Assembly: GCA_016699995.1 (NCBI GenBank) | Contig: CP064996.1 | Location: 626,963-690,962 of the forward strand | DNA: 64,000 nt | Direction: 5' to 3' | Source: a bacterium | Lineage (GTDB): Bacteria > Patescibacteriota > Doudnabacteria > UBA920 | Shown: positions 2,557-61,116 of the stretch, one piece after another | Position numbering within the stretch: position 1 is the stretch's first letter | Layout: every line of letters begins with the position of its first letter | Position numbers and translations under genes: made by a program | The notes under the pieces: generated by a model | Seen by the model: only the letters and a program-made list of their open reading frames with translations | Told to the model about the DNA's origin: nothing | Database searches by the model: none

Positions 2557-3438
2557 CTACCCTTGCATGCGTGCCAGCAGCAACACACCTCCAATGGCCA
2601 TAGCCACACCCAAATATTGATGCTGCCTCAATTTCTCCTTATTAATTAGCACGCCTAACAGGACGGCCAAGATAATATAGCTCTCACTAATAGTAATCGC
2701 GACAGAAATTGGAATATAAACAACCGCAAAAGCAAATGCGATCCAGGCCATGTTATCAAACGTAACCTCCGCTAAAACAGTGAGGGGATATTTCTTGATA
2801 TGCCCCACCATCAAACCGAAGCGGTTGGTAAAAATATAATAAATCACACATGGAATTAAAATTATTAAGCTCGTTGCCCATATAGTCATCAAGGGGCTAG
2901 TCTCCTGACTAGCAAAACCGACTGTAAAATTACCCAGTGCCATAGCTATGGATCCGAAAAACGCTAACCATACCCCCCGTTCGAACTTTTTAATATGGCC
3001 ATGCCAAAGATTCCTTAGTACATGCCTTCCTTCGGTCACTGTTAAAAAAATACCTATGAACACCAACGCGATTATTAAATATGTAAACAGATCTAACCGT
3101 TCATGACCCAACAGAGCGGCTATGATAACCGTGAATGGCAGCTCCAAACTTGCTGTAGGTTCGACTACAGAAAGCTTACCCTTCTTTAAAGCAGTGAATA
3201 AAAAGAACGAAGCGCCAATTAAGACTACGCCGGCAGTAAGTAATATATAAACAGTGCGAGCTTCAAGCAGAGGAAGTTCGTCCCATATGAAAGGCAAAAG
3301 AACTACGGCCGCCACAACATCGATAAAGAACATAGCATCGACAATGCCGGTTTTGCGCGAGGTTCTCTGTATAAAAAAATCACCTAAGCCCCAGCTAACA
3401 AGCGCTACTAAAGCAAAGATGATTCCTAAATATTCCAT
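2557..3438 (-). CDS. EamA/DMT-superfamily transporter (10 TM)
   Basis: 293 aa polytopic membrane protein. N-terminal SWGLGDFFIQR motif and duplicated 5-TM halves typical of EamA family. Confidence 0.7.
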   Translation of the reverse strand: MEYLGIIFALVALVSWGLGDFFIQRTSRKTGIVDAMFFIDVVAAVVLLPFIWDELPLLEARTVYILLTAGVVLIGASFFLFTALKKGKLSVVEPTASLELPFTVIIAALLGHERLDLFTYLIIALVFIGIFLTVTEGRHVLRNLWHGHIKKFERGVWLAFFGSIAMALGNFTVGFASQETSPLMTIWATSLIILIPCVIYYIFTNRFGLMVGHIKKYPLTVLAEVTFDNMAWIAFAFAVVYIPISVAITISESYIILAVLLGVLINKEKLRQHQYLGVAMAIGGVLLLARMQG

Positions 3439-3520
3439 AAATAATTTTGATGTTGATGTTTATAAAAGCTTAAAAAGATTCAACTAACCATACTATTTTA
3501 AAAACCAGTTTCTGAAAAAC

Positions 3521-5074
3521 TTAACTTAATTTCTTCCTAAGCAATTCATTCACCACCTGTGGGTTGGCTTTGCCCTGAGTTTCCTTCATAACCTGACCGA
3601 CCAAAAATCCGAACGATTTTTGCTCGCCAGCTTTAAAATCGGCAACGGCTTTTTCGTTCGCAGCTATAACATTGTCGATAGCAGCTTCGATGGCGCCTTC
3701 GTCGCTTACTTGAACCAGGCCCAGCTCTTCTACTATATGATCCGGCTCGCCGCCCTTTTCGAACATAACCTTAAAGACTTGTTTAGCTGCGCTGCCGCTA
3801 ATTTTACCGTTATCAATGAGCTTTACCAGTTCGGCCATGTTCTCGGCGGAAACCTTAGAATCCATTGGGTTCATATTATTGCTGTTTAACAAAGCAGAAA
3901 ACTCCTGCAGGCACCAATTAGCCGCTCCTTTAACCAGCTTGGCTCGCAATTCTTGATGAGGAATTTCTTTCATGCCGCTGTGCACGCTATCATCTGCAAC
4001 CATCCAGGCGTCGATTTCGCTAACCACGTTCTCAAAATATTCATTAAGTTCTTTCCAAGACAGCAGGTCTTCGATGGCATCATTGGCCAAACTAAACTCC
4101 TGAGCAAAACGCACGCGCTTAGCCGATGGCAATTCCGGAAGATTATTTCGCAGGTCATCTACGAATTCTTTTGTAAAATGCATTGGCGCTAGATCCGGCT
4201 CTGGGAAATAGCGATAGTCATTCGCCTCCTCTTTGCTGCGTTGTTCAACGGTTTCATTTTTCTTTTCATTCCAGCCCATTGTTACCTGCTTTGGCATTTC
4301 GCCAGCTTCCAGTATTTCGATATGGCGGGGTATTTCGTAGTTAATCGCTGCTTCGGCAAATCTAAAGCTGTTGATATTTTTCACTTCAACTTTATACTTG
4401 GGCAAAGTTTCTTCGCCCGGCTTGCGAACAGAAATATTCGGCTCGCAGCGCATAGTTCCCTTTTCCATATCTGCAGCACCAGCGCCAACATAGCGAACAA
4501 TTCTCTGCAACTCCTGTAAAAAAATGCGGGCCTCTTCGGCAGTCTCTACATCTGGTTCGGTTACGATTTCTAATAACGGACAACCAGCACGATTAAGATC
4601 CACCAAGGAATACGGCAAGCCTTCTGGATGGGTGTTTTTACCGGCGTCTTCTTCCAAATGAGCGCGGGTGATGCGAATGCGCTTCGTGTATGCCTCTGGA
4701 TTACCGCCCCACTGGGCTCGACTTGAATCCGCCGGCACACTGATTTCCACCCAGCCATTTTTGGCAATCGGTTCATCGTACTGGGAAATTTGATAACCCT
4801 TTGGAAGATCCGGATAAAAATAATGCTTGCGGTCGAACTTGGAGAATTCTGGAATTTCACAATTCAAAGCCAAGCCTACCATAACACCCAGACGCACTGC
4901 TTCTTTGTTTAATACCGGTAAAGTTCCTGGCTCAGCAGTAACAACTTCGTCTATATTAGTATTTGGCTGTTTCTCATCAGGATTATTCGGTGCGCTCGAA
5001 AACATCTTGCTTTTAGTAGCAAGCTGGACGTGGATCTCTAATCCAATGACTGGTTTATAACCTTTTAGTTCCAT
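3521..5074 (-). CDS. gatB: Asp/Glu-tRNA(Asn/Gln) amidotransferase subunit B
   Basis: N-terminal KPVIGLEIHVQL and C-terminal GatB/YqeY helical domain. Full length 517 aa. Confidence 0.9.
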   Translation of the reverse strand: MELKGYKPVIGLEIHVQLATKSKMFSSAPNNPDEKQPNTNIDEVVTAEPGTLPVLNKEAVRLGVMVGLALNCEIPEFSKFDRKHYFYPDLPKGYQISQYDEPIAKNGWVEISVPADSSRAQWGGNPEAYTKRIRITRAHLEEDAGKNTHPEGLPYSLVDLNRAGCPLLEIVTEPDVETAEEARIFLQELQRIVRYVGAGAADMEKGTMRCEPNISVRKPGEETLPKYKVEVKNINSFRFAEAAINYEIPRHIEILEAGEMPKQVTMGWNEKKNETVEQRSKEEANDYRYFPEPDLAPMHFTKEFVDDLRNNLPELPSAKRVRFAQEFSLANDAIEDLLSWKELNEYFENVVSEIDAWMVADDSVHSGMKEIPHQELRAKLVKGAANWCLQEFSALLNSNNMNPMDSKVSAENMAELVKLIDNGKISGSAAKQVFKVMFEKGGEPDHIVEELGLVQVSDEGAIEAAIDNVIAANEKAVADFKAGEQKSFGFLVGQVMKETQGKANPQVVNELLRKKLS

Positions 5075-5503: not shown

Positions 5504-6994
5504 TTAAATTGCTTTCTTAGTGTGCCAATCGGTTGCATCCTGATAGGCAGCTCCGACGTTAAAGACTTTTTGCTCGCCCCATTGCGGGCCGATAATTTGC
5601 AATCCCACCGGCATCTCTTTTTCTCCCCCATCGCTCGGCTTTGCAAAACCGCAGGGAACAGATAGCCCAGGAGTCCCTGCTAAAGAACCAGGGATATTCA
5701 ACTGATCGGCAATATAACCAAACAAGGGGTCGTTAGCTGCTTTGCCTAAAGGCAACGCTACATTCGGAGAACTCGGCGCTACTAACACATCTACCTGCTT
5801 AAATATTTCCTCGAACTCTCTGAGAATCAATCGGCGCACGCGCTGAGCTTTTTTGTAATAAGCATCGTAATAACCAGCAGATAACACATAGGTGCCGATC
5901 ATAATTCGGCGCTTGGCTTCGTCGCCAAAGCCTTCGGCACGGCTCTTCATATACACGTCCAATAAACTGCCTTCTTCTGATGTTGAATGGCCGTAACGGA
6001 TGCCATCATAACGCGCTAAATTAGATGATACTTCACTGGGACAAACAATAGCATAAACCAAAGAACCATATTTCGTGTTCGGCAAGCTCACATCGACAAT
6101 TTCTGCGCCCAATCCGCGCAGAACCTCGATCGCCTCCATCACTCTAGAACGCACATCTTCTTGCATACCCTCTATAAAGTACTCTTTAGGGACGCCAATT
6201 TTCATGCCTTTAATATCGGCATTGAGAAGCTTCGAGTATTCTGGAACTTCCATAGGTCCTGTTGTAGAATCTTTTTCGTCCTGTCCGCTAATAACTTCGG
6301 CAATCATCGCCAAATCGCGTACGCTCTGTGCCATCGCACCCATACTGTCTAATGAACTTGCCATCGCTGCTACCCCATAACGAGACACGCGTCCGTAAGT
6401 CGGCTTCCATCCGCTCACGCCAGTTAAAGATGCTGGTTGGCGAATGCTGCCACCGGTTTCTGTTGCCAAGGCCCAAGGAGCGAGCCCTCCCGCAACTGCA
6501 GCAGCGCTACCGCTGCTAGAGCCGCCTGGCATGCGAGTGGTATCCCAGGGATTGCGAGTCGCTCCGTAGTAAGAAGTTTCACCGCTAGAGCCGTGCGCAA
6601 ACTGATCCATATTGGCTTTGCCGATCATCACAGCTTTCTGTTCTTTCAATTTAGCAATTACAGTGGAGTCATAAGGAGGAATATAGTTATCCAAAATTTT
6701 CGATGCAGCCGTGGTGCGAATGCCTTTGGTTAAAAACAAATCTTTTGCCGCAAACGGAATGCCGCACAAAGGAGGGTTGCCGCCTTCTGCAGCAATATAT
6801 TCATCGGCCTCTTGCGCCTGACGCAAAGCATCTTCTTCGTCTACGGTAATGAACGCATTCAATTTATCCTGATCGCCGACCGGAGACAATTCTTTAATGC
6901 GTGCCAAAAAATATTTCGTCAGTTCCACCGACGAAATCTCTTTGCTATCTAATTTTTGACGCAGCTCATGCAGCTGCAGCTTTTCCCATTCCAT
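5504..6994 (-). CDS. gatA: Glu-tRNA(Gln) amidotransferase subunit A (amidase signature family)
   Basis: Amidase signature GGSSGGSAAAVA. Conserved Ser-cisSer-Lys region. 496 aa. Confidence 0.9.
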   Translation of the reverse strand: MEWEKLQLHELRQKLDSKEISSVELTKYFLARIKELSPVGDQDKLNAFITVDEEDALRQAQEADEYIAAEGGNPPLCGIPFAAKDLFLTKGIRTTAASKILDNYIPPYDSTVIAKLKEQKAVMIGKANMDQFAHGSSGETSYYGATRNPWDTTRMPGGSSSGSAAAVAGGLAPWALATETGGSIRQPASLTGVSGWKPTYGRVSRYGVAAMASSLDSMGAMAQSVRDLAMIAEVISGQDEKDSTTGPMEVPEYSKLLNADIKGMKIGVPKEYFIEGMQEDVRSRVMEAIEVLRGLGAEIVDVSLPNTKYGSLVYAIVCPSEVSSNLARYDGIRYGHSTSEEGSLLDVYMKSRAEGFGDEAKRRIMIGTYVLSAGYYDAYYKKAQRVRRLILREFEEIFKQVDVLVAPSSPNVALPLGKAANDPLFGYIADQLNIPGSLAGTPGLSVPCGFAKPSDGGEKEMPVGLQIIGPQWGEQKVFNVGAAYQDATDWHTKKAI

Positions 6995-7275
6995 TACAAA
7001 ATTGATTTCACTTTATAGTATCTATCTTTGCTCTGTGGAGCGTTTTTTGTTATATCGTCTTGGTATTCGATCATAACGGCTTTATCTGGGCGCACAACAT
7101 TTTCCAAACCAGTTACCGAAGAGACGATTTCCAGCCCTTCTGTATCGACATCTTTAAGCTCGTCTACATAATCCAAAACAGAAGACAGGTCGGTTTGGAA
7201 TTTTTCCACTTCCCCGTCTCGCAGCTCTATACGCGCTAATTGGGCGATTTTTTTGACTTCATCTGTACTTAACAT
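6994..7275 (-). CDS. gatC: Glu-tRNA(Gln) amidotransferase subunit C
   Basis: 93 aa. MLSTDEVKKIAQLARIEL...DVDTEGLE typical GatC. Start overlaps the gatA region, giving the gatCAB order. Confidence 0.85.
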   Translation of the reverse strand: MLSTDEVKKIAQLARIELRDGEVEKFQTDLSSVLDYVDELKDVDTEGLEIVSSVTGLENVVRPDKAVMIEYQDDITKNAPQSKDRYYKVKSIL

Positions 7276-7391
7276 AGCTTAATTATAATGAAATTATTCG
7301 AAAAAGAAAATACTGTATAGAGTGGTTCTAAGTATGGATTTAACCGCGAAAAATTGCTATACTTAGCCCAATCATTAATCTCTATGTATAT

Positions 7392-7940
7392 ATGTGGATT
7401 TTCTTAGGAATTATTGCGATTGCAGTAATCGCTATAATCTTTGTTTACAACTCGCTTATTCGCTCCCGCAATCGCGTGGACGAAGCATGGGCAGATATCG
7501 AAGTTCAGCTTAAGCGCCGCTATGACCTGATCCCTAACCTAGTAAATACCGTTAAAGGTTTTGCTGCGCAGGAATCCGGCGTGCTAGAACGCGTCACCGA
7601 AGCCCGCACCCGCGCGATGGGCGCGCACAACCCGGCCGAACAGGCTCAGGACGAAAACATGCTGTCCTCTACTTTAAAAAGCTTGTTTGCTGTTGCAGAA
7701 AACTATCCTGACCTAAAGAGTAACCAAAATTTTGCTCAATTACAGGCAGACCTTACTGACACAGAAAATAAGATTCAGGCCGCTCGCCGATTTTATAACG
7801 GTAACGTCCGCGACTTTAACACCAAGATCGAAGTCTTTCCTACTAACTTGTTTGCTTCCATGCTTGGCTTTACCAAGCGGGCGTTCTTCGACATCGACGA
7901 CAACGGCCCAGAAAGCCAGAATGTTGAAGTTAAGTTTTAA
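7392..7940 (+). CDS. lemA: LemA family membrane protein
   Basis: N-terminal TM then NSLIRSRNRVDEAWADIEVQLKRRYDLIPNLV, the LemA signature. Classically paired with the downstream HtpX-like protease. Confidence 0.85.
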   Translation: MWIFLGIIAIAVIAIIFVYNSLIRSRNRVDEAWADIEVQLKRRYDLIPNLVNTVKGFAAQESGVLERVTEARTRAMGAHNPAEQAQDENMLSSTLKSLFAVAENYPDLKSNQNFAQLQADLTDTENKIQAARRFYNGNVRDFNTKIEVFPTNLFASMLGFTKRAFFDIDDNGPESQNVEVKF

Positions 7941-10563: not shown

Positions 10564-13116
10564 ATGAATAATTTTGCTTTTATTTTAGAAAGGCTTTCCA
10601 GCCGTGCCAAAAATGCGCTTATTGCAGCGCAGATGGTATCCGAAGAACTCCACCACGATCACATCGGGACGGAGCATTTATTGTTTGGGGTGGTTGCAGA
10701 AAAGTCCAGCTTTGCCGGGGAGATCTTAACCAAAGCCAAACTTACGCCAGATCTAATCAAATCAGAACTAGAACTTGTTAACCAAAATAACCAAATCACG
10801 GTTTGGAAACCGGTTCTTTCTGCGAATTTAAAAACCGCGATCGAAAAATCGGCTATCATCGCCAGCCAATACGGTTACCAATTTATCGGCACCGAACATT
10901 TCTTGTACGGACTCATTACCACAGAGCACAACCGAGCGCGGGTGATTTTATCTAAGCTTGGAGTTGACATTGGCGAACTTGACCACAACCTAATTACAGT
11001 TTTCGAAAATATTTCTAAATTCCCAGAGATGCCAAATGATGGCATGCCGGGCGGTGCGCAAAACCCAGACGGTCATATGCATCAGTCCCCTGTCGGACCA
11101 GATCCGAAGCGCGGCAACATGCTGGAATATTTTACGACCGACTTAACCAAGAAAGCCGCACAAGGAAATATTGATCCGGTTATTGGACGCAAAAAGGAAA
11201 TTGAACGCTTGGTGAGCATTCTTGGCCGACGTACTAAAAACAACCCGGTCCTCATCGGTGAAGCCGGCGTCGGTAAAACTGCTATTGTTGAGGGTTTGGC
11301 TTTAGCTATCGCCAACCGCGAAGTGCCAGATACTTTATTAGATAAAAAAATCATGGCGTTAGACTTAGCGCTGATTGTTGCCGGTTCGATGTTCCGCGGC
11401 GAATTCGAAAACCGCTTAAAGCAGATTATTGATGAAGTTAAAGCTAATCCAAACGTAATTCTATTTATAGACGAACTCCACACCCTGTCTGGCGCCGGAG
11501 CAACCACCGGCAGTTTAGATGCAGCTAACATCTTTAAGCCGGCCTTGGCACGCGGGGAGCTTCGCACCATTGGTGCGACTACTTTAGCCGAATACAAAAA
11601 GCACATCGAACATGACGCCGCCTTAGAGCGCCGCTTCCAGCCAATCTTGGTCGAAGAACCAAGCAAGGAAGAGGCTTTGGCTATTCTTAAAGGAATCCGC
11701 CCAAATTACGAAAAACACCATAACGTTCATATTACCGACGAAGCGCTGCAAGCAGCCGTAGACTTGTCCGACCGCTACATTCAGGATCATTTCCTGCCAG
11801 ACAAAGCTGTGGACCTAGTAGACGAAACTGCCGCGTTTTTGCGCAGCATTCACAGTAATTCAAAATTGGCCAAAACTAAGCGCAAAGTAGAAACCGAATT
11901 AGAGCAATTAGAAGAAGAGAAAACTAAAGCAGTGCTCTCACAAGACTTTACCACTGCCCTGCACCTGCGCGCACAGGAAGAGCGCCTGTTAGCTCAGAAA
12001 AAGGAACTGGAAACATTGAGCAAGGAAGACACAGGTCCGGTCTATTCCATCTCGGCTGAAGACATTGCCCACACAGTTTCTTTGATGACTAAAATCCCCT
12101 TAAAGAAGCTGGCCCAAAACGAAATCGGCAAGCTTACTAATTTAGAAAAGACTTTAAAGGCCCGTATTGTCGGCCAAGACGAAGCACTCGTCGAAATCGC
12201 CAAGACTATCCGCCGCTCCCGTGCCGGCTTAAACGACCCTAAACGCCCAATTGGCTCTTTCATGTTCCTCGGTCCGACCGGCGTGGGCAAAACCGAAACA
12301 GCCAAGATGATAGCGCAGGAAGTTTTCGAAGATGCCGATGCTCTCATCCGCGTAGATATGTCTGAATTTATGGAACGCCACAACGTTGCGCGCTTAATCG
12401 GCGCTCCGGCCGGCTATGTAGGATACGAAGAAGGCGGCCGCTTAACCGAGGCTGTTCGCCGAAAACCCTATGCAGTAATCTTGTTCGACGAAATCGAAAA
12501 AGCCCATCCCGAAGTGTTCAACGTTTTGCTTCAGATCTTAGAAGACGGCCAGCTAACTGACGCGCAAGGCAAGCGTGTCAACTTCGCCAATACGGTCATC
12601 ATTATGACTTCCAACTTGGGCATGCAGGAACTTAATACCGCCAGCGTCAAGATCGGCTTCGCAGACCGCGACGAACAGGTCACAGAAAAAGCCAAAATGG
12701 AAAAGGAATACGATCGCATCAAGGAAGGCTTGCTCGAAAAGCTTAGGAGAGACCTGCGTCCGGAATTCCTAAACCGCATCGACAAAGTGATTATCTTCCA
12801 CCCTCTCGGTATGGCTGACCTCAAACGCATTACCCAGCTACAGATTAGCGACCTTCAGAAGCGCCTAGATATTCAAAAGATAAGCTTAAAAACAACTCCA
12901 GCTCTGATAAAGTTCATCTCCGAAAAAAGCTTCGATCCGCTCCAAGGGGCACGCTATATTCGAAAAAATGTTCAGGATTTAATTAGCGACCCGCTGGCTG
13001 AACAGATCATTCAGCAAAACCTCAAAGAAGGCGCAACGATTACAGTTGGCGTAGACGGCGAAAAAGTTTCGTTTAAAACCGAAAAAAGCAAACGCGCCGC
13101 TGCTGTACCAGCGTAA
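10564..13116 (+). CDS. clpC: Clp/Hsp100 AAA+ chaperone ClpC/ClpB-type (two AAA modules, Clp_N repeats)
   Basis: Two N-terminal Clp_N repeats (HIGTEHLLFGVV; IGTEHFLYGLI). Walker A GEAGVGKTAIVEGLA and second GPTGVGKTETAK. Short middle coiled coil. 850 aa. Confidence 0.9.
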   Translation: MNNFAFILERLSSRAKNALIAAQMVSEELHHDHIGTEHLLFGVVAEKSSFAGEILTKAKLTPDLIKSELELVNQNNQITVWKPVLSANLKTAIEKSAIIASQYGYQFIGTEHFLYGLITTEHNRARVILSKLGVDIGELDHNLITVFENISKFPEMPNDGMPGGAQNPDGHMHQSPVGPDPKRGNMLEYFTTDLTKKAAQGNIDPVIGRKKEIERLVSILGRRTKNNPVLIGEAGVGKTAIVEGLALAIANREVPDTLLDKKIMALDLALIVAGSMFRGEFENRLKQIIDEVKANPNVILFIDELHTLSGAGATTGSLDAANIFKPALARGELRTIGATTLAEYKKHIEHDAALERRFQPILVEEPSKEEALAILKGIRPNYEKHHNVHITDEALQAAVDLSDRYIQDHFLPDKAVDLVDETAAFLRSIHSNSKLAKTKRKVETELEQLEEEKTKAVLSQDFTTALHLRAQEERLLAQKKELETLSKEDTGPVYSISAEDIAHTVSLMTKIPLKKLAQNEIGKLTNLEKTLKARIVGQDEALVEIAKTIRRSRAGLNDPKRPIGSFMFLGPTGVGKTETAKMIAQEVFEDADALIRVDMSEFMERHNVARLIGAPAGYVGYEEGGRLTEAVRRKPYAVILFDEIEKAHPEVFNVLLQILEDGQLTDAQGKRVNFANTVIIMTSNLGMQELNTASVKIGFADRDEQVTEKAKMEKEYDRIKEGLLEKLRRDLRPEFLNRIDKVIIFHPLGMADLKRITQLQISDLQKRLDIQKISLKTTPALIKFISEKSFDPLQGARYIRKNVQDLISDPLAEQIIQQNLKEGATITVGVDGEKVSFKTEKSKRAAAVPA

Positions 13117-14320: not shown

Positions 14321-14414
<94 letters not shown>

Positions 14415-14450: not shown

Positions 14451-14482
14451 ATAAAAAACACGGAAATATTCCGTGTTATTTG
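14451..14482. terminator. hairpin terminator (serves minus-strand 14476 gene)
   Basis: AACACGGAA-ata-TTCCGTGTT flanked by A/T runs on both strands. Confidence 0.5.
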
Positions 14483-14793
14483 TCTTCAAAGCGATAGTAC
14501 ATTACTGCACGCCGCGGGATCCTGCGGATAATATGACGCGTTTTACCCGGCGCTATCTTTTCTACTTTGCCTCGATCTTCCGCCGTGATATTACAGATGG
14601 TAACAAACATCACCTCTTTCATCTTGTTGGTTACTGAAAATTTAGTTGAATAATTTGCTGCGCGTCCCAAGTTCACGTTGAGTTTGTTGGAAATAGACGC
14701 ACCTGTAGCGTGGGCCAAATCGAAGGTAATCGCGTCCCACTTAAACCCATCTTCTAAATCGTAGCCTTGCCCAAACCCTGCTGGAAAACCCAT
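14476..14793 (-). CDS. hypothetical protein (105 aa), divergent from the Ubl operon
   Basis: GGAGGA RBS 7 nt upstream. No recognisable domain. Confidence 0.6.
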   Translation of the reverse strand: MGFPAGFGQGYDLEDGFKWDAITFDLAHATGASISNKLNVNLGRAANYSTKFSVTNKMKEVMFVTICNITAEDRGKVEKIAPGKTRHIIRRIPRRAVMYYRFEDK

Positions 14794-14845
14794 AATCTTT
14801 CCTCCTGAAAAATCAATTACTAACTAAAGAGTTTACCGCTCTTTA

Positions 14846-14876
14846 ATGGTATCGTCAAGAATGGTATCGTCAAGCC
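14846..14876. repeat. perfect tandem direct repeat AATGGTATCGTCAAG x2 in divergent intergenic region
   Basis: 14846-14860 and 14861-14875 are identical 15-mers, located between the 14476(-) gene and the E2-like gene. Candidate operator. Confidence 0.6.
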
Positions 14877-14964: not shown

Positions 14965-16641
14965 ATGGATCTTAACGTTGTAATGACTTCGGCAAGAATA
15001 CCAGCCGTAGTGAGCCAAGCTACTGAAGAAGTAGCCAAAAGGGTTCTATCGAGAGCTATGAAAGCTTCTAATGTTCATACGGTAAATATCATAGACCGGG
15101 ATACACAGCCACTTAAGCCACGCTATCCCGATGGCGGCTTCAACATTTTTCTAGACAGTTACATACTGACGCCTTACTCAATGTCCGGCAAAGTATTGGC
15201 CCCGGATCAGATCTGGAAAACCACCTCCAATATGTATGACAATCATCTCATGTACACCCCTTCGGGTGAAGGCATGCTGATAATTGATTCTACCAGCGAC
15301 ACGGTCGTAGCTGAGTATACGGACTACAACCTATATATCTTACTTGATCCGTATGCCCTATGCTGCATTGCAAACAGAGGATGGTTGTATATCTTTGAGC
15401 AAATTCTCAAGGAAACTCTGCTATATCTTCCAGCCGGACCTCCGCAAATTTGCGAGATCTACGATGGCCGGTTCAGGATCCCTAAGATTGCCGACATTAA
15501 GGATATGGTCGGCGACCTCAGATACCTACGCGATCAGTTAGCCAAACATGTAGGAACAGGGACAGAATTGTACGATCAACTGGCAAAAATTTCCGATACG
15601 GACCCAAGCGAACGGGTACTAAAACAGCTCGCCAGGATCCCGGAAATTAAAACCATGTCCATAAAAAAGCAAAGCATTACAATCGTCACCTATACCATGT
15701 ACGCTGAAGATCGTAGCCGGCATAAAATTCATGAACTTGGCCCTTTCCGGATAACTTTGAACTTCGGCGAAAATGCCAGTGCGGAATTCAGAAATCAAGG
15801 GCACAGATATGGCGGTTACGGACACCCTCACGTTGATAGGGACCGGGAAGGATACTGGTGCATGGGAGAAGGCTCAGCTATCCTTGACTTGCTAAAAACC
15901 TTTGAGTTCGAAGCAGCTATCTTGTTTGCCATCAAGGCAATTGAGTCAGTCAATCCTCGTCCTGACTATCTTAGCATCTTAAGACAGTTTCCCATTGTGG
16001 AAGAAAGGTTAAAATACCCCAAAGCAGAAGCAGAGTTGGACGAACACTCAAAAGAATCCTTTCTAAAAATGTACAGCGACGATAATGACGGCATTCACAA
16101 GCGGATTCTAGGTAAAATTCGTAATTTCCAAAACTCCGCGAAAGGTGCTCAAAGTGAATTATTTCTAAGCGTATTCGGTTCCACTCTCATAAAAGAGCTT
16201 GCCGACCCGAATGGTGCCAGGAACTTAACCGAGAAGCTACAAAGCCAGATTAAGGAGCTTAAAGACTTCCCATGGGTAGATAGAGTCACTATTCGAGACG
16301 ATCTTGTTGGCGTTCGAACTGTCTCGATGGTCATTACAGATACAGACACCCAGGAAAAATTCAGAGTCGGACCATTTGGTATTGCTTATAATTTCTCTGA
16401 TGGCACAGTGAAGGTGCAAAGCGAACGACCGTTCATGGTCAACGGGCAAATCTACCAGGCTCCCCAGATCCCCAATGAAGATGGCGACCTGATACTCAGC
16501 CAGCTCACGATGACTCTCCCAGAACTGATGGGAGAGCTAGAAGTAGCAACCTGTACAGAGCTGTTTGTAAATTACATCGCCACTTTCTCTAGCGTAACCC
16601 TCGGAGTCAAACCCCCGGAAACGCTAAGAGTGATTAAATAG
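14965..16641 (+). CDS. large multi-domain protein with central E2/UBC-like domain (HPH...C active-site loop)
   Basis: RBS AGGAGGAAGTATG. Residues about 240-330: beta-meander (SITIVTYTMY, HKIHELGPFRITLNF), then GHPHVDRDREGYWCMGEGSAILDLL, then helix ending ...AIKAIESVNP. This matches the UBC HPN-x(n)-G-x-I-C-L...PNP topology. The flanking N-terminal (~230 aa) and C-terminal (~220 aa) regions are unassigned. Confidence 0.6.
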   Translation: MDLNVVMTSARIPAVVSQATEEVAKRVLSRAMKASNVHTVNIIDRDTQPLKPRYPDGGFNIFLDSYILTPYSMSGKVLAPDQIWKTTSNMYDNHLMYTPSGEGMLIIDSTSDTVVAEYTDYNLYILLDPYALCCIANRGWLYIFEQILKETLLYLPAGPPQICEIYDGRFRIPKIADIKDMVGDLRYLRDQLAKHVGTGTELYDQLAKISDTDPSERVLKQLARIPEIKTMSIKKQSITIVTYTMYAEDRSRHKIHELGPFRITLNFGENASAEFRNQGHRYGGYGHPHVDRDREGYWCMGEGSAILDLLKTFEFEAAILFAIKAIESVNPRPDYLSILRQFPIVEERLKYPKAEAELDEHSKESFLKMYSDDNDGIHKRILGKIRNFQNSAKGAQSELFLSVFGSTLIKELADPNGARNLTEKLQSQIKELKDFPWVDRVTIRDDLVGVRTVSMVITDTDTQEKFRVGPFGIAYNFSDGTVKVQSERPFMVNGQIYQAPQIPNEDGDLILSQLTMTLPELMGELEVATCTELFVNYIATFSSVTLGVKPPETLRVIK

Positions 16642-16646
16642 AACAA

Positions 16647-16670
16647 CCCCTGTTATTTACAGGGGTTTTT
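16647..16670 (+). terminator. intra-operon rho-independent terminator/attenuator
   Basis: CCCCTG-ttattta-CAGGGG plus TTTTT directly after the E2-like stop. Followed by TTGACA(16673)-N17-TACTAT. Confidence 0.6.
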
Positions 16671-16672
16671 AC

Positions 16673-16701
16673 TTGACAAAAGGCTTCTCCCCCGCTACTA
16701 T
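16673..16701 (+). promoter_or_regulatory. sigma70-like promoter for JAB-E1-Ubl genes
   Basis: TTGACA at 16673-16678, a 17 nt spacer, then TACTAT at 16696-16701. RBS AAGGAGGA at 16713-16720. Confidence 0.45.
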
Positions 16702-16727
16702 AAACAGCTATAAAGGAGGACATATGC

Positions 16728-17759
16728 ATGGGCAAAAAGAATAAGCCAGACAAGAAATCGGAAGATGGTCCTGAGATGGAAACTGCTAATAATGAATCGG
16801 CAAATAAAGCCAAAAACGCAGCCGAGGCGGAGCAAGCAGAGGAAGCGGTAAGCGAAGCTGTCGATGATGGGGAGGTTCTGGAATTACCGGAAGCACCACA
16901 AGCGGAAACCAAAACTGCAGGCCAGCAAAACGAAGAAACAATAATCGAAGTTCTGGAAGCCGAAGTTGTTGTGGAGACCAAGCCTGAACAAGCAGAACCA
17001 GATGAAGAGGAAGAGGAAGGAAAAGAGGAACCTCCTCAATATACCTATCACTGGGATCTTGCCAGGCGACCGGCTCAAGATTTTAAAAAACCTCGTTACT
17101 TTGCAACCAGCGCCGAATTGCTCAGAGTTCCTGCAACGATTCCCGTTATCCACGTCAGCTTATTCGCAGCTATGAAGATGTATCTCATGCTCAGTTATAT
17201 CGAGCAAGAGATTGGCTGGCTGGGAACGGCATACAGGCACAACGAGAAAGATTTTCGAATCGCCGATGTATTTATCTTTCATCAAGATATCAGTGCAGGG
17301 CACTCGGAGCTGTCAAAAACCAGCATGGCTGACTTCATCTGTGAAATGATGGGCACACCAGATGGTGAAGAGATCTTCAATAACACCAAATTTTGGGGAC
17401 ACTCTCATGGCTCCGGCGGCACATTCCCCTCCGGCCAAGACGACACGCAGGCTGAGTCCTTCGCTCAGGGCGGAGAAGATTTCTTTATTCGAGGAATTTT
17501 CAATCGACAAGGGGATATGAACTTCAGCGTCTACGACTGGGAAAAAGGGATAGCCTTTCACAGGATACCTTGGCTCATTCAAGCTGCGCCTGCGGATATG
17601 CCGGCTGATACCTATGACCGACTGAAAGAGTTTATTCTGCAGGAGATGAAAACCAAAGTCGTCCATCGCCGAAAGGTATACAAACACAAGCGCGGACGAA
17701 TATCTAAACGCGGTAAATCATGGATAGAACGGACGTTCGACACATGGCTTGGAGGATAA
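16728..17759 (+). CDS. JAB/MPN (JAMM) metalloprotease with acidic low-complexity N-terminal region
   Basis: Complete JAMM motif: E (IEQEIGW) ... HSHGSGGTFPSGQDD, which is HxH-x7-S-xx-D. The N-terminal ~100 aa is E/A/K-rich. Confidence 0.8.
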   Translation: MGKKNKPDKKSEDGPEMETANNESANKAKNAAEAEQAEEAVSEAVDDGEVLELPEAPQAETKTAGQQNEETIIEVLEAEVVVETKPEQAEPDEEEEEGKEEPPQYTYHWDLARRPAQDFKKPRYFATSAELLRVPATIPVIHVSLFAAMKMYLMLSYIEQEIGWLGTAYRHNEKDFRIADVFIFHQDISAGHSELSKTSMADFICEMMGTPDGEEIFNNTKFWGHSHGSGGTFPSGQDDTQAESFAQGGEDFFIRGIFNRQGDMNFSVYDWEKGIAFHRIPWLIQAAPADMPADTYDRLKEFILQEMKTKVVHRRKVYKHKRGRISKRGKSWIERTFDTWLGG

Positions 17760-17762
17760 AGG

Positions 17763-18461
17763 ATGCTGGATACAATAAGGCACATTGATGTTTTTTCTGC
17801 GGCTCAGTTTGGAGACCTTCGCGTTGACATTATCGGCGCTGGCGCTACCGGCTCCCGGATAGCGTTAGAGCTGGCAAAGCTAGGCCTCTCGAACATTCAC
17901 GTTTGGGATTTTGACAAAATCGAATCCCATAATGTCCCCAACCAAGTCTACGGCAACAATCATATTGGCGAAGTCAAGGTGGAGGCATTAAAGAGGATCA
18001 TCGAAGAGCAAACGGGCACCGTCATCACTTGCCACGAGGCAAGAGTCGACGGCACTCAGGAACTTGGAGATGTGGTATACTTGCTAACTGACACTATGGC
18101 CTCCAGGCAGGAAATCTGGAAGAATGGTCTGAGGTACAAGCCTCGGACTAAACTGATGATAGAAACTCGCATGGGTGCCAATAGCGGTCGAGTCTACTGT
18201 GTTAACCCTTCTTCTCCCAAGGACGTGAAGGGATGGGAAGCAACTTTATATTCTGATGATGTGGCAGTAGTTTCTGCCTGCGGAACTAGCATAACAGTTG
18301 GAGCAACCGCAGCTATGGTTACGGGCTATGCCGTTTGGCAGCTGATCCGTTGGCACAAAGCAGAAACAAGTTTAAAGGAAAACAAGGAACCTGATGACCG
18401 ACCCGAGAATGAATTAATTTTTTCGGTTCAGCCAGCAATGGTTAATACGTCTGACTTTTAG
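17763..18461 (+). CDS. E1-like ubiquitin-activating enzyme (ThiF/MoeB family, minimal)
   Basis: Rossmann IIGAGATGSRIALELAKLG. ThiF motif WDFDKIESHNVPNQ (D-x-D-x-hE-xSNLNRQ). Candidate catalytic Cys in SACGTSITVGATAAM. RBS GGAGGATAAAGGATG. Confidence 0.8.
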   Translation: MLDTIRHIDVFSAAQFGDLRVDIIGAGATGSRIALELAKLGLSNIHVWDFDKIESHNVPNQVYGNNHIGEVKVEALKRIIEEQTGTVITCHEARVDGTQELGDVVYLLTDTMASRQEIWKNGLRYKPRTKLMIETRMGANSGRVYCVNPSSPKDVKGWEATLYSDDVAVVSACGTSITVGATAAMVTGYAVWQLIRWHKAETSLKENKEPDDRPENELIFSVQPAMVNTSDF

Positions 18462-18471
18462 GAGGAAAGAA

Positions 18472-18738
18472 ATGATCGAAGAAAATGACAATGCTAATGG
18501 TCTCACTAAAACAATTACCGTCAAAATGGGATCCTACCCGGGGGGCAAGGTTAAACCCTACACCTTTCCCGAGGGCACCGATTATGGCGAAGCACTTCGT
18601 CAGGCCAACTTGACGCGAGGCAATAACGTTGAGGCTCTCGATATTCGAGTTAACGGCCAGAAGATCAGCAGCCCCGATGCTCTGATCGAAGAAGGAGATC
18701 AAATTCTCGTCTTCGAGAACATCCGAGGCAATAATTAA
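18472..18738 (+). CDS. ubiquitin-like beta-grasp protein (ThiS/MoaD-like), C-terminus ...ENIRGNN
   Basis: 88 aa. RBS AGGAGGAAAGAAATG. KTITVKMG...VNGQKISSPDALIEEGDQILVFENIRG resembles ThiS/MoaD/Ubl sequences ending at a Gly. Two residues (NN) follow the Gly. Confidence 0.55.
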   Translation: MIEENDNANGLTKTITVKMGSYPGGKVKPYTFPEGTDYGEALRQANLTRGNNVEALDIRVNGQKISSPDALIEEGDQILVFENIRGNN

Positions 18739-18765: not shown

Positions 18766-18794
18766 CAAAGCACGGTTTACTGTGCTTTTTTTAT
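18766..18794 (+). terminator. rho-independent terminator of Ubl operon
   Basis: AAAGCACGG-ttta-CTGTGCTTT followed by TTTTTTATTT. Confidence 0.7.
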
Positions 18795-18914
18795 TTGCAG
18801 GTCTTGGAGGCTGGTTATGCTAAAATATAGCTATTAGCTTGCTACATTCAAACAAAATCCGCATAATACTAATCTTCTTCGGACCTGTAACAAAGCCCCT
18901 CTTAGCTCGTCTAT

Positions 18915-20815: not shown

Positions 20816-20903
20816 GGAGAGGTCGCATAGTGGTTTAGTGCAACGGTCTTGAAAACCGTCAGGTCTCAAAGCCTCGAGGGTTCGAATCCCTCCCTCTCCG
20901 CCA
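20816..20903 (+). tRNA. tRNA-Ser (anticodon TGA), type II
   Basis: Acceptor GGAGAGG/CCTCTCC-G-CCA. Anticodon stem ACGGT/ACCGT with loop CTTGAAA. Long variable arm. T-arm GAGGG-TTCGAAT-CCCTC. The 5' 18 nt and 3' 28 nt are identical to tRNA-Ser(GCT) at 14321. Confidence 0.9.
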
Positions 20904-60728: not shown

Positions 60729-61116
60729 GGGGATGCCGGATTTCGACAGGACTTCGACATCGCTCTATATGCAAGACGAGCCAGCTTGCAAGCTCGTAAA
60801 TCTTACAAGCAACCATAAGTGTAAACTCATGGAACAAGGTCGTTACCGCATTTAAAAATGCGCAACTTGCACCTGCGTTCGCTTAACATTTAGGCAAACG
60901 CCTGGTCCTCTGCCCCGCTCTGGGCAGAGATCCGCCAGATTATTTTGAGCTATAGTGTTGTTGTCCGATATATGCAATAACACCGAAATTTTATATATCG
61001 ACCATTAGCTTAGTTGTTCGTTGTAAGGCTAGTGGTAACTTAAACGAACTAATCTTGTGAACAATGGAACGGTGAAAAAGACTTGGACGCGGGTTTAACT
61101 CCCGCCATCTCCACCA
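60729..61116 (+). ncRNA. ssrA: transfer-messenger RNA (tmRNA, ssrA)
   Basis: 5' GGGGATGCCGGATTTCGACAGG (E. coli has GGGGCUGAUUCUGGAUUCGACGGG). 3' GGACGCGGGTTTAACTCCCGCCATCTCCACCA (E. coli has GGACGCGGGUUCAACUCCCGCCAGCUCCACCA). Acceptor stem has the G3:U wobble. smpB lies 4 kb upstream. Candidate tag ORF GCA TTT AAA AAT GCG CAA CTT GCA CCT GCG TTC GCT TAA (AFKNAQLAPAFA*) at 60848-60896. Confidence 0.85.

Follow-up and report, generated by a model that had tools for sequence, protein, structure and literature searches.

A predicted E2-like protein with a built-in pseudo-E2 module in a four-gene ubiquitin-like cassette of a Doudnabacteria genome

Does the 558-residue protein encoded at positions 14965-16641 of a 64,000-nucleotide stretch of a Doudnabacteria genome (GenBank assembly GCA_016699995.1, contig CP064996.1, positions 626,963 to 690,962 of the forward strand; hereafter the window) belong to a ubiquitin-like conjugation pathway, and what would each of its three parts contribute? 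Protein conjugation by bacterial ubiquitination-like pathways (CBASS Cap2/Cap3, Bub and the antiphage Bil systems) was demonstrated only in recent years, and these pathways have been discussed as ancestral to the eukaryotic machinery. An earlier note, made from the letters of the window alone, had called an E2-like domain in the protein on the basis of a single HPH...C motif. Our analysis indicates that the protein is probably the E2-like conjugating enzyme of a self-contained four-gene cassette for conjugation of a ubiquitin-like protein (Ubl). Its open reading frame (ORF) starts with ATG, has an AGGAGG site 5' of the start, and encodes a product identical to the NCBI hypothetical protein IPM19_03445 of a MAG contig of 943 kb. 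The gene and its predicted parts are as follows:

14965..16641, + strand: E2-like gene (558 aa, three-part), from the ORF list and translation.
15070..15444, + strand: N-terminal family-specific domain (residues ~36-160), from copy number in relatives and hhalign.
15490..16002, + strand: helical hairpin and predicted UBC/E2-fold catalytic module (residues 176-346).
15823..15831, + strand: H287-P288-H289, the counterpart of the E2 HPN, from conservation and alignment to UBE2L3.
15859..15861, + strand: Cys299, the candidate thioester-forming cysteine, from conservation and alignment to UBE2L3.
16027..16599, + strand: second helical hairpin and Cys-less UBC-like module (residues 355-545), a putative UEV-like pseudo-E2, from hhalign.

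The central module carries the E2 assignment. A structure model of residues 176-352, built with a 62-sequence alignment, reaches a predicted local distance difference test (pLDDT) score of 90 and comprises a helical hairpin, a six-stranded sheet and three helices; the fold search and this confident domain model identify a UBC-type α/β fold, in which an antiparallel sheet is followed by helices. When the domain profile was searched against PDB sequences, 19 matches were obtained at E ≤ 10, all 19 of them E2 enzymes, and in these matches the family Cys aligns onto the catalytic Cys. The hhalign comparison with UBE2L3 (probability 90.2%, E 1.5e-6) covers 67 columns spanning HPN...Cys and, in agreement with the profile, places H287-P288-H289 and Cys299 in register with the HPN...Cys of UBE2L3, with Cys299 on the catalytic Cys86. 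The three closest homologues show no variation in the motif on which the earlier call was based, YGHPHVDR...WC (H287, P288, H289, C299), and of the 22 closest representatives nearly all retain it (one reads HPN and one HSH). In the family alignment the Pro, the second His and the Cys are each ≥ 90% conserved. Across the family the consensus reads (A/H)PH(V/I)xxxGxxCLGN, its Cys standing at +10 from the first motif position, as in HPNIxxxGxIC; the window subfamily reads GHPHVDR...WCxGEG, and Cys299 lies 12 residues after H287, within the ~8-12 residues past an HPN-type motif expected for an E2. A strict His-Pro-Asn occurs in one representative only, the triplet being H-P-H in the subfamily and A-P-H in most relatives.

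Residues 176-346 are, as judged from alignments and the model, a predicted E2-type module with Cys299 as its candidate active site, a call made because fold, motif register and gene context agree, the individual scores being modest. The E2-like domain of the earlier note is supported by the fold search, by PDB profile matches that are exclusively E2s, by the 90% alignment to UBE2L3 and by the linkage to JAB, E1 and Ubl genes described below; the searches did not assign the protein to an unrelated enzyme family, and the motif similarity did not fall to noise level.

The C-terminal ~220 residues, which the same note had taken for a motif-less region and possible effector, turn out to be a degenerate repeat of the central module (hhalign 99-100%). 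Comparison of the central module with residues 355-545 gives a probability of 100% and an E-value of 2.6e-44 with all sequences, and 99.1% and 6.5e-19 when only the 22 full-length closest relatives are used, a restriction that excludes alignment contamination as the source of the match. The segment APQIPNEDGDLILSQL in the C-terminal copy is the counterpart of GHPHVDRDREGYWCMGEG in the active copy, and the column of the Cys is occupied by P, G or F in the C-terminal module of relatives, so that within the fused protein the Cys is lost in the second copy only. Residues 355-545 are by these alignments a degenerate, Cys-less duplicate of the E2-like module that has also lost the His, a predicted pseudo-E2 resembling UEV/RWD proteins.

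The N-terminal domain (residues 36-160) is present in 0-5 copies in relatives, mostly one or two. It is unrelated to the other two modules (hhalign ~1%) and found no relative among PDB sequences, its WD40 matches at E ≥ 1 being noise; its structure model is of low confidence. It is the fastest-evolving part of the protein, at 26-36% identity, and would be the only remaining plausible target-recognition module. The Cys pair at residues 133-134 (ALCCIANRGW), singled out earlier as a feature of this region, is conserved in no homologue.

Three genes downstream of the E2-like gene would supply the remaining parts of a conjugation pathway, the E1 gene starting 3 nucleotides past the JAB stop codon and the Ubl gene 10 nucleotides past the E1 stop codon:

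16728..17759, + strand: JAMM/JAB metallopeptidase, 343 aa, from its JAMM motif.
17763..18461, + strand: ThiF-type E1, single domain, 232 aa, from a Pfam ThiF match at E 9e-19.
18472..18738, + strand: Ubl, 88 aa, ThiS/MoaD/SAMP-type beta-grasp, ending IRG-NN, from PDB profile matches.

In the JAB protein Glu161 (in EIGWLG) together with HSHGSGGTFPSGQD (HSHx7SxxD) at residues 225-238 forms a complete JAMM motif, and both elements are invariant in 7 orthologues. No significant relative was found among PDB sequences, the profile giving a marginal match to an Rpn11-like protein (E 0.56), and the assignment is made because the JAMM motif is invariant and Pfam gives a weak Prok-JAB match (E 0.007). 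The N-terminus of the JAB protein (16728-17090) consists of ~120 acidic, Glu/Ala/Pro-rich low-complexity residues that are absent or different in orthologues, and the JAB proteins of Melainabacteria are 400-700 aa long and carry extra domains. In the E1, Cys173 of the SACG motif is invariant among orthologues of 51-69% identity (alignment A4); among solved structures the E1 comes nearest to the generic relatives Uba1, MccB, ThiF and MoeB, at no better than ~1e-8. Against PADLOC the cassette proteins showed generic E1 similarity only.

The Ubl profile matches SAMP2 (3.7e-5) and PF1061 (4.8e-5) among PDB sequences, followed by MoaD, ThiS and TtuB, with the C-terminal Gly in register. All seven aligned cellular orthologues end in (R/Q)GN plus 0-1 residue, and since the Gly is followed by extra residues a peptidase would have to expose it. 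Such exposure of the Ubl Gly by a peptidase has been shown for BilA and BilC (10.1101/2023.09.26.559546). Two tandem Ubl domains occur in the Ubl gene of loci L038, L042, L044, L046, L052 and L053, and three in that of L063, an arrangement that recalls polyubiquitin as well as BilA and BubA, which likewise have several domains.

The four genes occur together well beyond the window. An exhaustive hidden Markov model (HMM) search returned at least 1391 cluster representatives of the E2-like family at E ≤ 1e-3, a family with zero annotation in four curated libraries, and a word-indexed homologue search yielded 3 relatives from the single protein and at least 16 proteins (the query and those 3 included) from an alignment. 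Each of three close homologues (29-34% identity) and three distant ones (~25-30%) is encoded in such a four-gene cassette. Because the E1 is much better conserved than the E2-like protein, it was taken as the anchor for a genome scan with one genome per species, which gave 49 loci; by HMMs, the E2-like, JAB, E1 and Ubl genes were found together in nearly all of them. The neighbourhood to E1 and JAB genes in other genomes, for which the earlier note had proposed a search, is therefore the rule, both here and in the six homologue loci. The closest E1-anchored locus belongs to Candidatus Saccharibacteria (70%); other Patescibacteria among the 49 are Paceibacterota, Parcubacteria, Doudnabacteria and Uhrbacteria, and ~30 loci are from Melainabacteria/Obscuribacterales, four genomes of which carry two copies of the system; a few further loci come from bins otherwise labelled. 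Three architectures are seen:

(i) Single E2: [N + E2]-JAB-E1-Ubl.
(ii) Fused, as in the window: [N + E2 + pseudo-E2]-JAB-E1-Ubl.
(iii) Melainabacteria: Ubl-[N,N,E2a]-[E2b]-JAB-E1, or JAB-E1-E2a-E2b.

A paralogous second E2-like module is found in two of the three, fused and Cys-less in the window and as a separate gene in Melainabacteria. There, E2a (loci L012-L054, Melainabacteria/Obscuribacterales) combines N-terminal domains with APHV...CLGN, the Cys being kept in all E2a-type domains among the loci first fetched. E2b is a separate protein of ~300 aa in which AP(R/Y/Q/N)V replaces APHV and the Cys is usually kept, sometimes being S, I, F, A or H. E2a always scores higher with the central-module model, and E2b scores equal or higher with the C-terminal-module model in 15 of 26 cases. 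This suggests that the window protein corresponds to an E2a-E2b fusion; where both E2a and E2b carry a Cys, the two could act in series as a relay.

Conservation is uneven across the cassette, identity to the window being 29-36% for the E2-like protein, 32-49% for JAB, 33-58% for the Ubl and 53-69% for the E1; inside the E2-like protein, identity is 43-49% for the catalytic module but drops to 26-36% in the flanks. The fast evolution of the E2 and the variability of its N-terminal array are in keeping with direct contact with variable targets. No E3 candidate is conserved beside the cassette, and no neighbour genes are conserved between loci. Among individual loci, two of the three closest, L002 (5535-7818) and L003 (4863-7132), have a DUF6008 gene immediately upstream of the cassette, together with a gene of ~510 aa that faintly matches NAD_binding_8; the window has neither. 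In L010, ~840 nucleotides (3387-4224) separate the E2-like stop codon from the JAB-domain ORF, a stretch that may be a diverged JAB N-terminus or a small extra gene.

How are the four genes transcribed? The E2-like gene is followed by elements that would set it apart from the other three, and the earlier description of a hairpin terminator and then TTGACA-N17-TACTAT between the E2-like gene and JAB-E1-Ubl is correct:

16645..16672, + strand: intrinsic-terminator-like hairpin and T-run, from scan and fold.
16673..16701, + strand: sigma-70-type promoter-like site TTGACA-N17-TACTAT, best match in an 8.5-kb scan, 10/12.
18767..18796, + strand: terminator-like hairpin (itself 18767-18788) and T-run closing the JAB-E1-Ubl unit, with a 9-bp stem followed by TTTTATTTGC.

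The first hairpin (16645-16667) has a 9-bp stem with 5 G-C pairs and is followed by TTTTTA. Within the fused subfamily a hairpin with a T-run stands directly past the stop codon in 5 of 7 loci (the window, L002, L003, L009 and L010), and TTGACA-N17/18-TAnnnT follows the gene in 4 of 7 (the window, L002, L003 and L009); the hairpin and promoter sequences are unrelated between loci, and it is their position that is conserved. Separate transcription of the E2-like gene from JAB-E1-Ubl is therefore a plausible trait of the fused subfamily, and not a universal one. Alternatively, hairpin and promoter-like site could be chance features or an mRNA-stabilizing stem within one four-gene operon. The 8.5-kb scan finds 14 promoter-like matches where chance alone predicts 14, the fold z-score of the hairpin is only -2.1 and its T-run has only five T; both features are missing from L001 and L011 of the same subfamily (gaps of ~22-24 nucleotides), as from the other architectures, with gaps of 11-31 nucleotides or overlapping ORFs, and neither was found in the 92-nucleotide gap of L006, where both were looked for. 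Set against the recurrence of hairpin and promoter in the subfamily without sequence similarity, and the rank of the window site as the best match of the scan, a single operon is the less probable arrangement, with a real minority chance of being right.

About 90 bp upstream of the E2-like start codon lies a perfect tandem direct repeat, AATGGTATCGTCAAG x2 (14845-14874), which could be an operator. It occurs once in the window, where 0.09 chance matches are expected, and sits between the E2-like gene and a divergent 105-aa ORF (14476-14793, - strand) that has no Pfam match.

From the gene order, folds, motifs, duplication and conserved four-gene linkage, we infer the following chemical steps and a role for each flanking module. 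The JAMM peptidase would cut the two C-terminal Asn residues off the Ubl to expose Gly86, which the ThiF-type E1 would adenylate, probably forming a thioester on its Cys173. The Ubl would then move to Cys299 of the E2-like module, from which it would be transferred to a lysine of a target held by the N-terminal domain, with no E3, as proposed for Bil systems. The pseudo-E2 module may bind a Ubl or the E1 non-covalently, in the way that Mms2 acts for Ubc13.

The Ubl and E1 would also suit a sulfur-carrier pathway, in which the JAMM-trimmed, E1-adenylated Ubl is converted to a thiocarboxylate, the 558-aa protein is a scaffold or sulfur acceptor, and Cys299 serves persulfide or acyl-disulfide chemistry in place of protein tagging. 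The best matches of the Ubl profile (SAMP2, MoaD, ThiS and TtuB) and the minimal 232-aa ThiF/MoeB-like E1 agree with such a pathway, as does the removal of C-terminal extensions by JAMM peptidases known for CysO and QbsE, trimmed by Mec+ and QbsD, respectively. However, the ever-present partner has an E2 fold with PH...Cys in register with E2 active sites, and the Ubl has at its end one Gly, preceded by Arg, where sulfur carriers usually have Gly-Gly. The inspected cassettes contain no rhodanese, cysteine desulfurase, ThiG, MoaE, CysM or other sulfur-acceptor gene, and in the Pfam-annotated loci no such linked sulfur donor or acceptor enzyme lies in or beside the cassette. We consider the sulfur-carrier pathway improbable.

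Similarly improbable is a non-catalytic RWD/UEV-like adaptor, both modules of which would only bind, with a structural Cys and with conjugation performed by the E1 alone. Consistent with such an adaptor, none of the curated E2 models (UQ_con and Prok-E2_A to E) matches the 558-aa protein in Pfam, and the Ubl resembles SAMP2, whose archaeal SAMPylation pathway is E2-independent. Yet the Cys and the preceding PH are ≥ 90% conserved and exactly aligned with the E2 HPN...Cys, it is exactly these residues that the duplicated module, free to decay, has lost, and the profiles retrieve catalytic E2s, not RWD proteins.

Returning to an E2-like enzyme in a self-contained conjugation cassette, several observations weigh against this assignment. 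The E-values of the PDB profile matches are marginal (0.1-1.6), the third motif residue is His and not the Asn of HPN, and the Ubl and E1 resemble sulfur-carrier proteins. The 558-aa protein has zero matches in Pfam (E ≤ 0.1), NCBIfam, PHROG and PADLOC. Finally, the window shows no sign of a defence island or recent transfer around the cassette: the neighbours are housekeeping genes (HtpX, RecX, ClpC and ComF before the cassette, then a sigma factor, DUF5667, DUF5673, RecG and RadA) and the GC content is flat. Searching PDB sequences with the single 558-aa sequence gave noise only, and ten scanned relatives of the protein matched no Pfam family at E ≤ 0.01.

Relatives of the cassette are also found on viral sequences. 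The full cassette is present on the IMG/VR contigs L058, L059, L061, L063 and L065 (44-207 kb, classed as viral), although the neighbours in L061 and L063 (DnaB, FolD, HNH endonucleases and a helicase) are ambiguous between a phage and a misclassified candidate-phyla genome fragment. In the Xanthomonas jumbo phage PhiXhv-12 (L075) an 893-aa protein with IHPHMAVPSSQESHGSLCLGS contains an HPH...CLG E2-like module, and its gene lies directly upstream of an E1 relative (33% identity) annotated 'thiamine biosynthesis protein'; this E1 relative is also present in related jumbo phages of Xanthomonas and Erwinia. In the Flavobacterium phage FpV4 (L074) gp53 consists of a Ubl, ending KSGG, with a long C-terminal tail fused to it; next come gp52, gp51, which has a JAMM motif, and gp50, a relative of the E1 at 30% identity. 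Foldseek against viral models retrieved phage proteins with the E2-like module at probability 1.0. The patchy distribution among taxa, the rapid divergence of the E2-like protein and these phage relatives make us lean, with low confidence, towards a role in phage-host conflict over a housekeeping one; a regulatory or proteostasis role is the alternative.

Around the cassette of the window, genes for tRNA-Ser(GCT) (14321-14414) and tRNA-Ser(TGA) (20816-20903) bracket a segment made up of the four genes and of those for the sigma factor and DUF5667; neither an integrase nor a repeat hinting at an integrated element was seen. In L001 the cassette is flanked by AAA+ ATPase genes (5724-7502 and 15520-17464), and ClpC lies upstream of it in the window (10564-13116), a proximity that is not conserved in other loci and could hint at a link to unfolding or proteolysis. 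Elsewhere in the window lies a tmRNA gene (60729-61116) with the tag peptide VNSWNKVVTAFKNAQLAPAFA.

The proposed system would unite a canonical-looking PH...Cys site, a minimal E1, a SAMP-like Ubl and a built-in pseudo-E2. If the assignment is true, it widens the known design space of bacterial ubiquitination-like systems and provides the first predicted protein-tagging system of candidate-phyla bacteria. The compact four-gene cassette is directly testable in E. coli, and experiments could also start from the relatives in cultured phages of Xanthomonas, Erwinia and Flavobacterium, which are tractable in the laboratory.

How, then, does the cassette compare with the systems already known? The closest in content are the BilABCD systems (Type I/II; operon types 6d, CEHH/6C), which are made of the same parts, Ubl, E2, JAB and E1, with no E3. 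In both, extra residues come after a conserved Gly of the Ubl, and the JAB presumably takes them off (10.1101/2023.09.26.559546). The Bil gene order, Ubl-E2-JAB-E1, is that of the Melainabacteria variant and differs from the order in the window. The Bil E1 is built as IAD-AAD-CYS, whereas the E1 described here is one 232-aa ThiF domain, and BilA resembles eukaryotic Ubls (10.1101/2023.09.26.559546), whereas the Ubl of the cassette is like ThiS/MoaD/SAMP; a second E2-like module or gene is a further difference. The E2-like family profile aligns to E. aridi BilB with a probability of 0.2% (hhalign), BilB is not among the PDB profile matches, and no CapH/CapP or WYL regulator was seen beside the cassette.

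The archaeal SAMP/UbaA/HvJAMM and the bacterial TtuB/TtuC, CysO/Mec+ and QbsE/QbsD systems share with the cassette the same types of ThiS/MoaD-type Ubl, minimal ThiF-type E1 and JAMM peptidase. In contrast to these SAMP and sulfur-carrier systems, which have no E2, the cassette always comes with an E2-fold protein bearing a conserved Cys, and it lacks the sulfur-transfer enzymes on which the sulfur-carrier systems depend.

Bub employs Ser/Tyr oxyesters, has no catalytic cysteines and uses the DUF6527 protease BubE (10.1101/2024.11.21.623953). Both Bub and Type II CBASS are excluded: for Bub (6E/DUF6527), none of the four cassette proteins matches DUF6527 in Pfam or, the weak Prok-JAB match apart, another protease family, and both candidate cysteines are conserved, and for CBASS, in which Cap2 fuses E1 and E2 and the CD-NTase itself is conjugated, the cassette has a separate Ubl and separate E1 and E2-like genes, with no CD-NTase or effector among the annotated neighbours.

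The cassette would thus stand beside Bil, Bub and CBASS as a separate variant among the ubiquitination-like systems of bacteria, one of which an earlier description may exist; no paper tying this family, Patescibacteria or Melainabacteria to a Ubl system was found in the literature covered, which leaves out most subscription journals. Tentatively, these cassettes may form an undescribed prokaryotic ubiquitination-like lineage of candidate phyla, Melainabacteria and some phages, operating with an E2-UEV pair or an E2-to-E2 relay, in which the variable N-terminal array picks the targets and no E3 takes part.

Measured against canonical E2s (UBE2L3, Ubc13), the central module has the same UBC-type fold and the same Pro-containing tripeptide followed by a Cys ~10-12 residues on, in register with HPN...Cys, and its partnership with a Cys-less paralogous module is the pairing seen in Ubc13-Mms2. 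It differs in having no UQ_con match, in its (A/H)-P-H motif and in the long helical hairpin preceding each module. It also differs from the canonical E2/UEV arrangement in that the active and dead modules lie in one chain with an extra N-terminal domain, and from the canonical system in that its Ubl is ThiS/SAMP-like, not ubiquitin-like. In a sequence comparison with the Bil E2, the one bacterial E2 covered, the E2 active site of the cassette would be closer to those of eukaryotic E2s than is that of the Bil E2.

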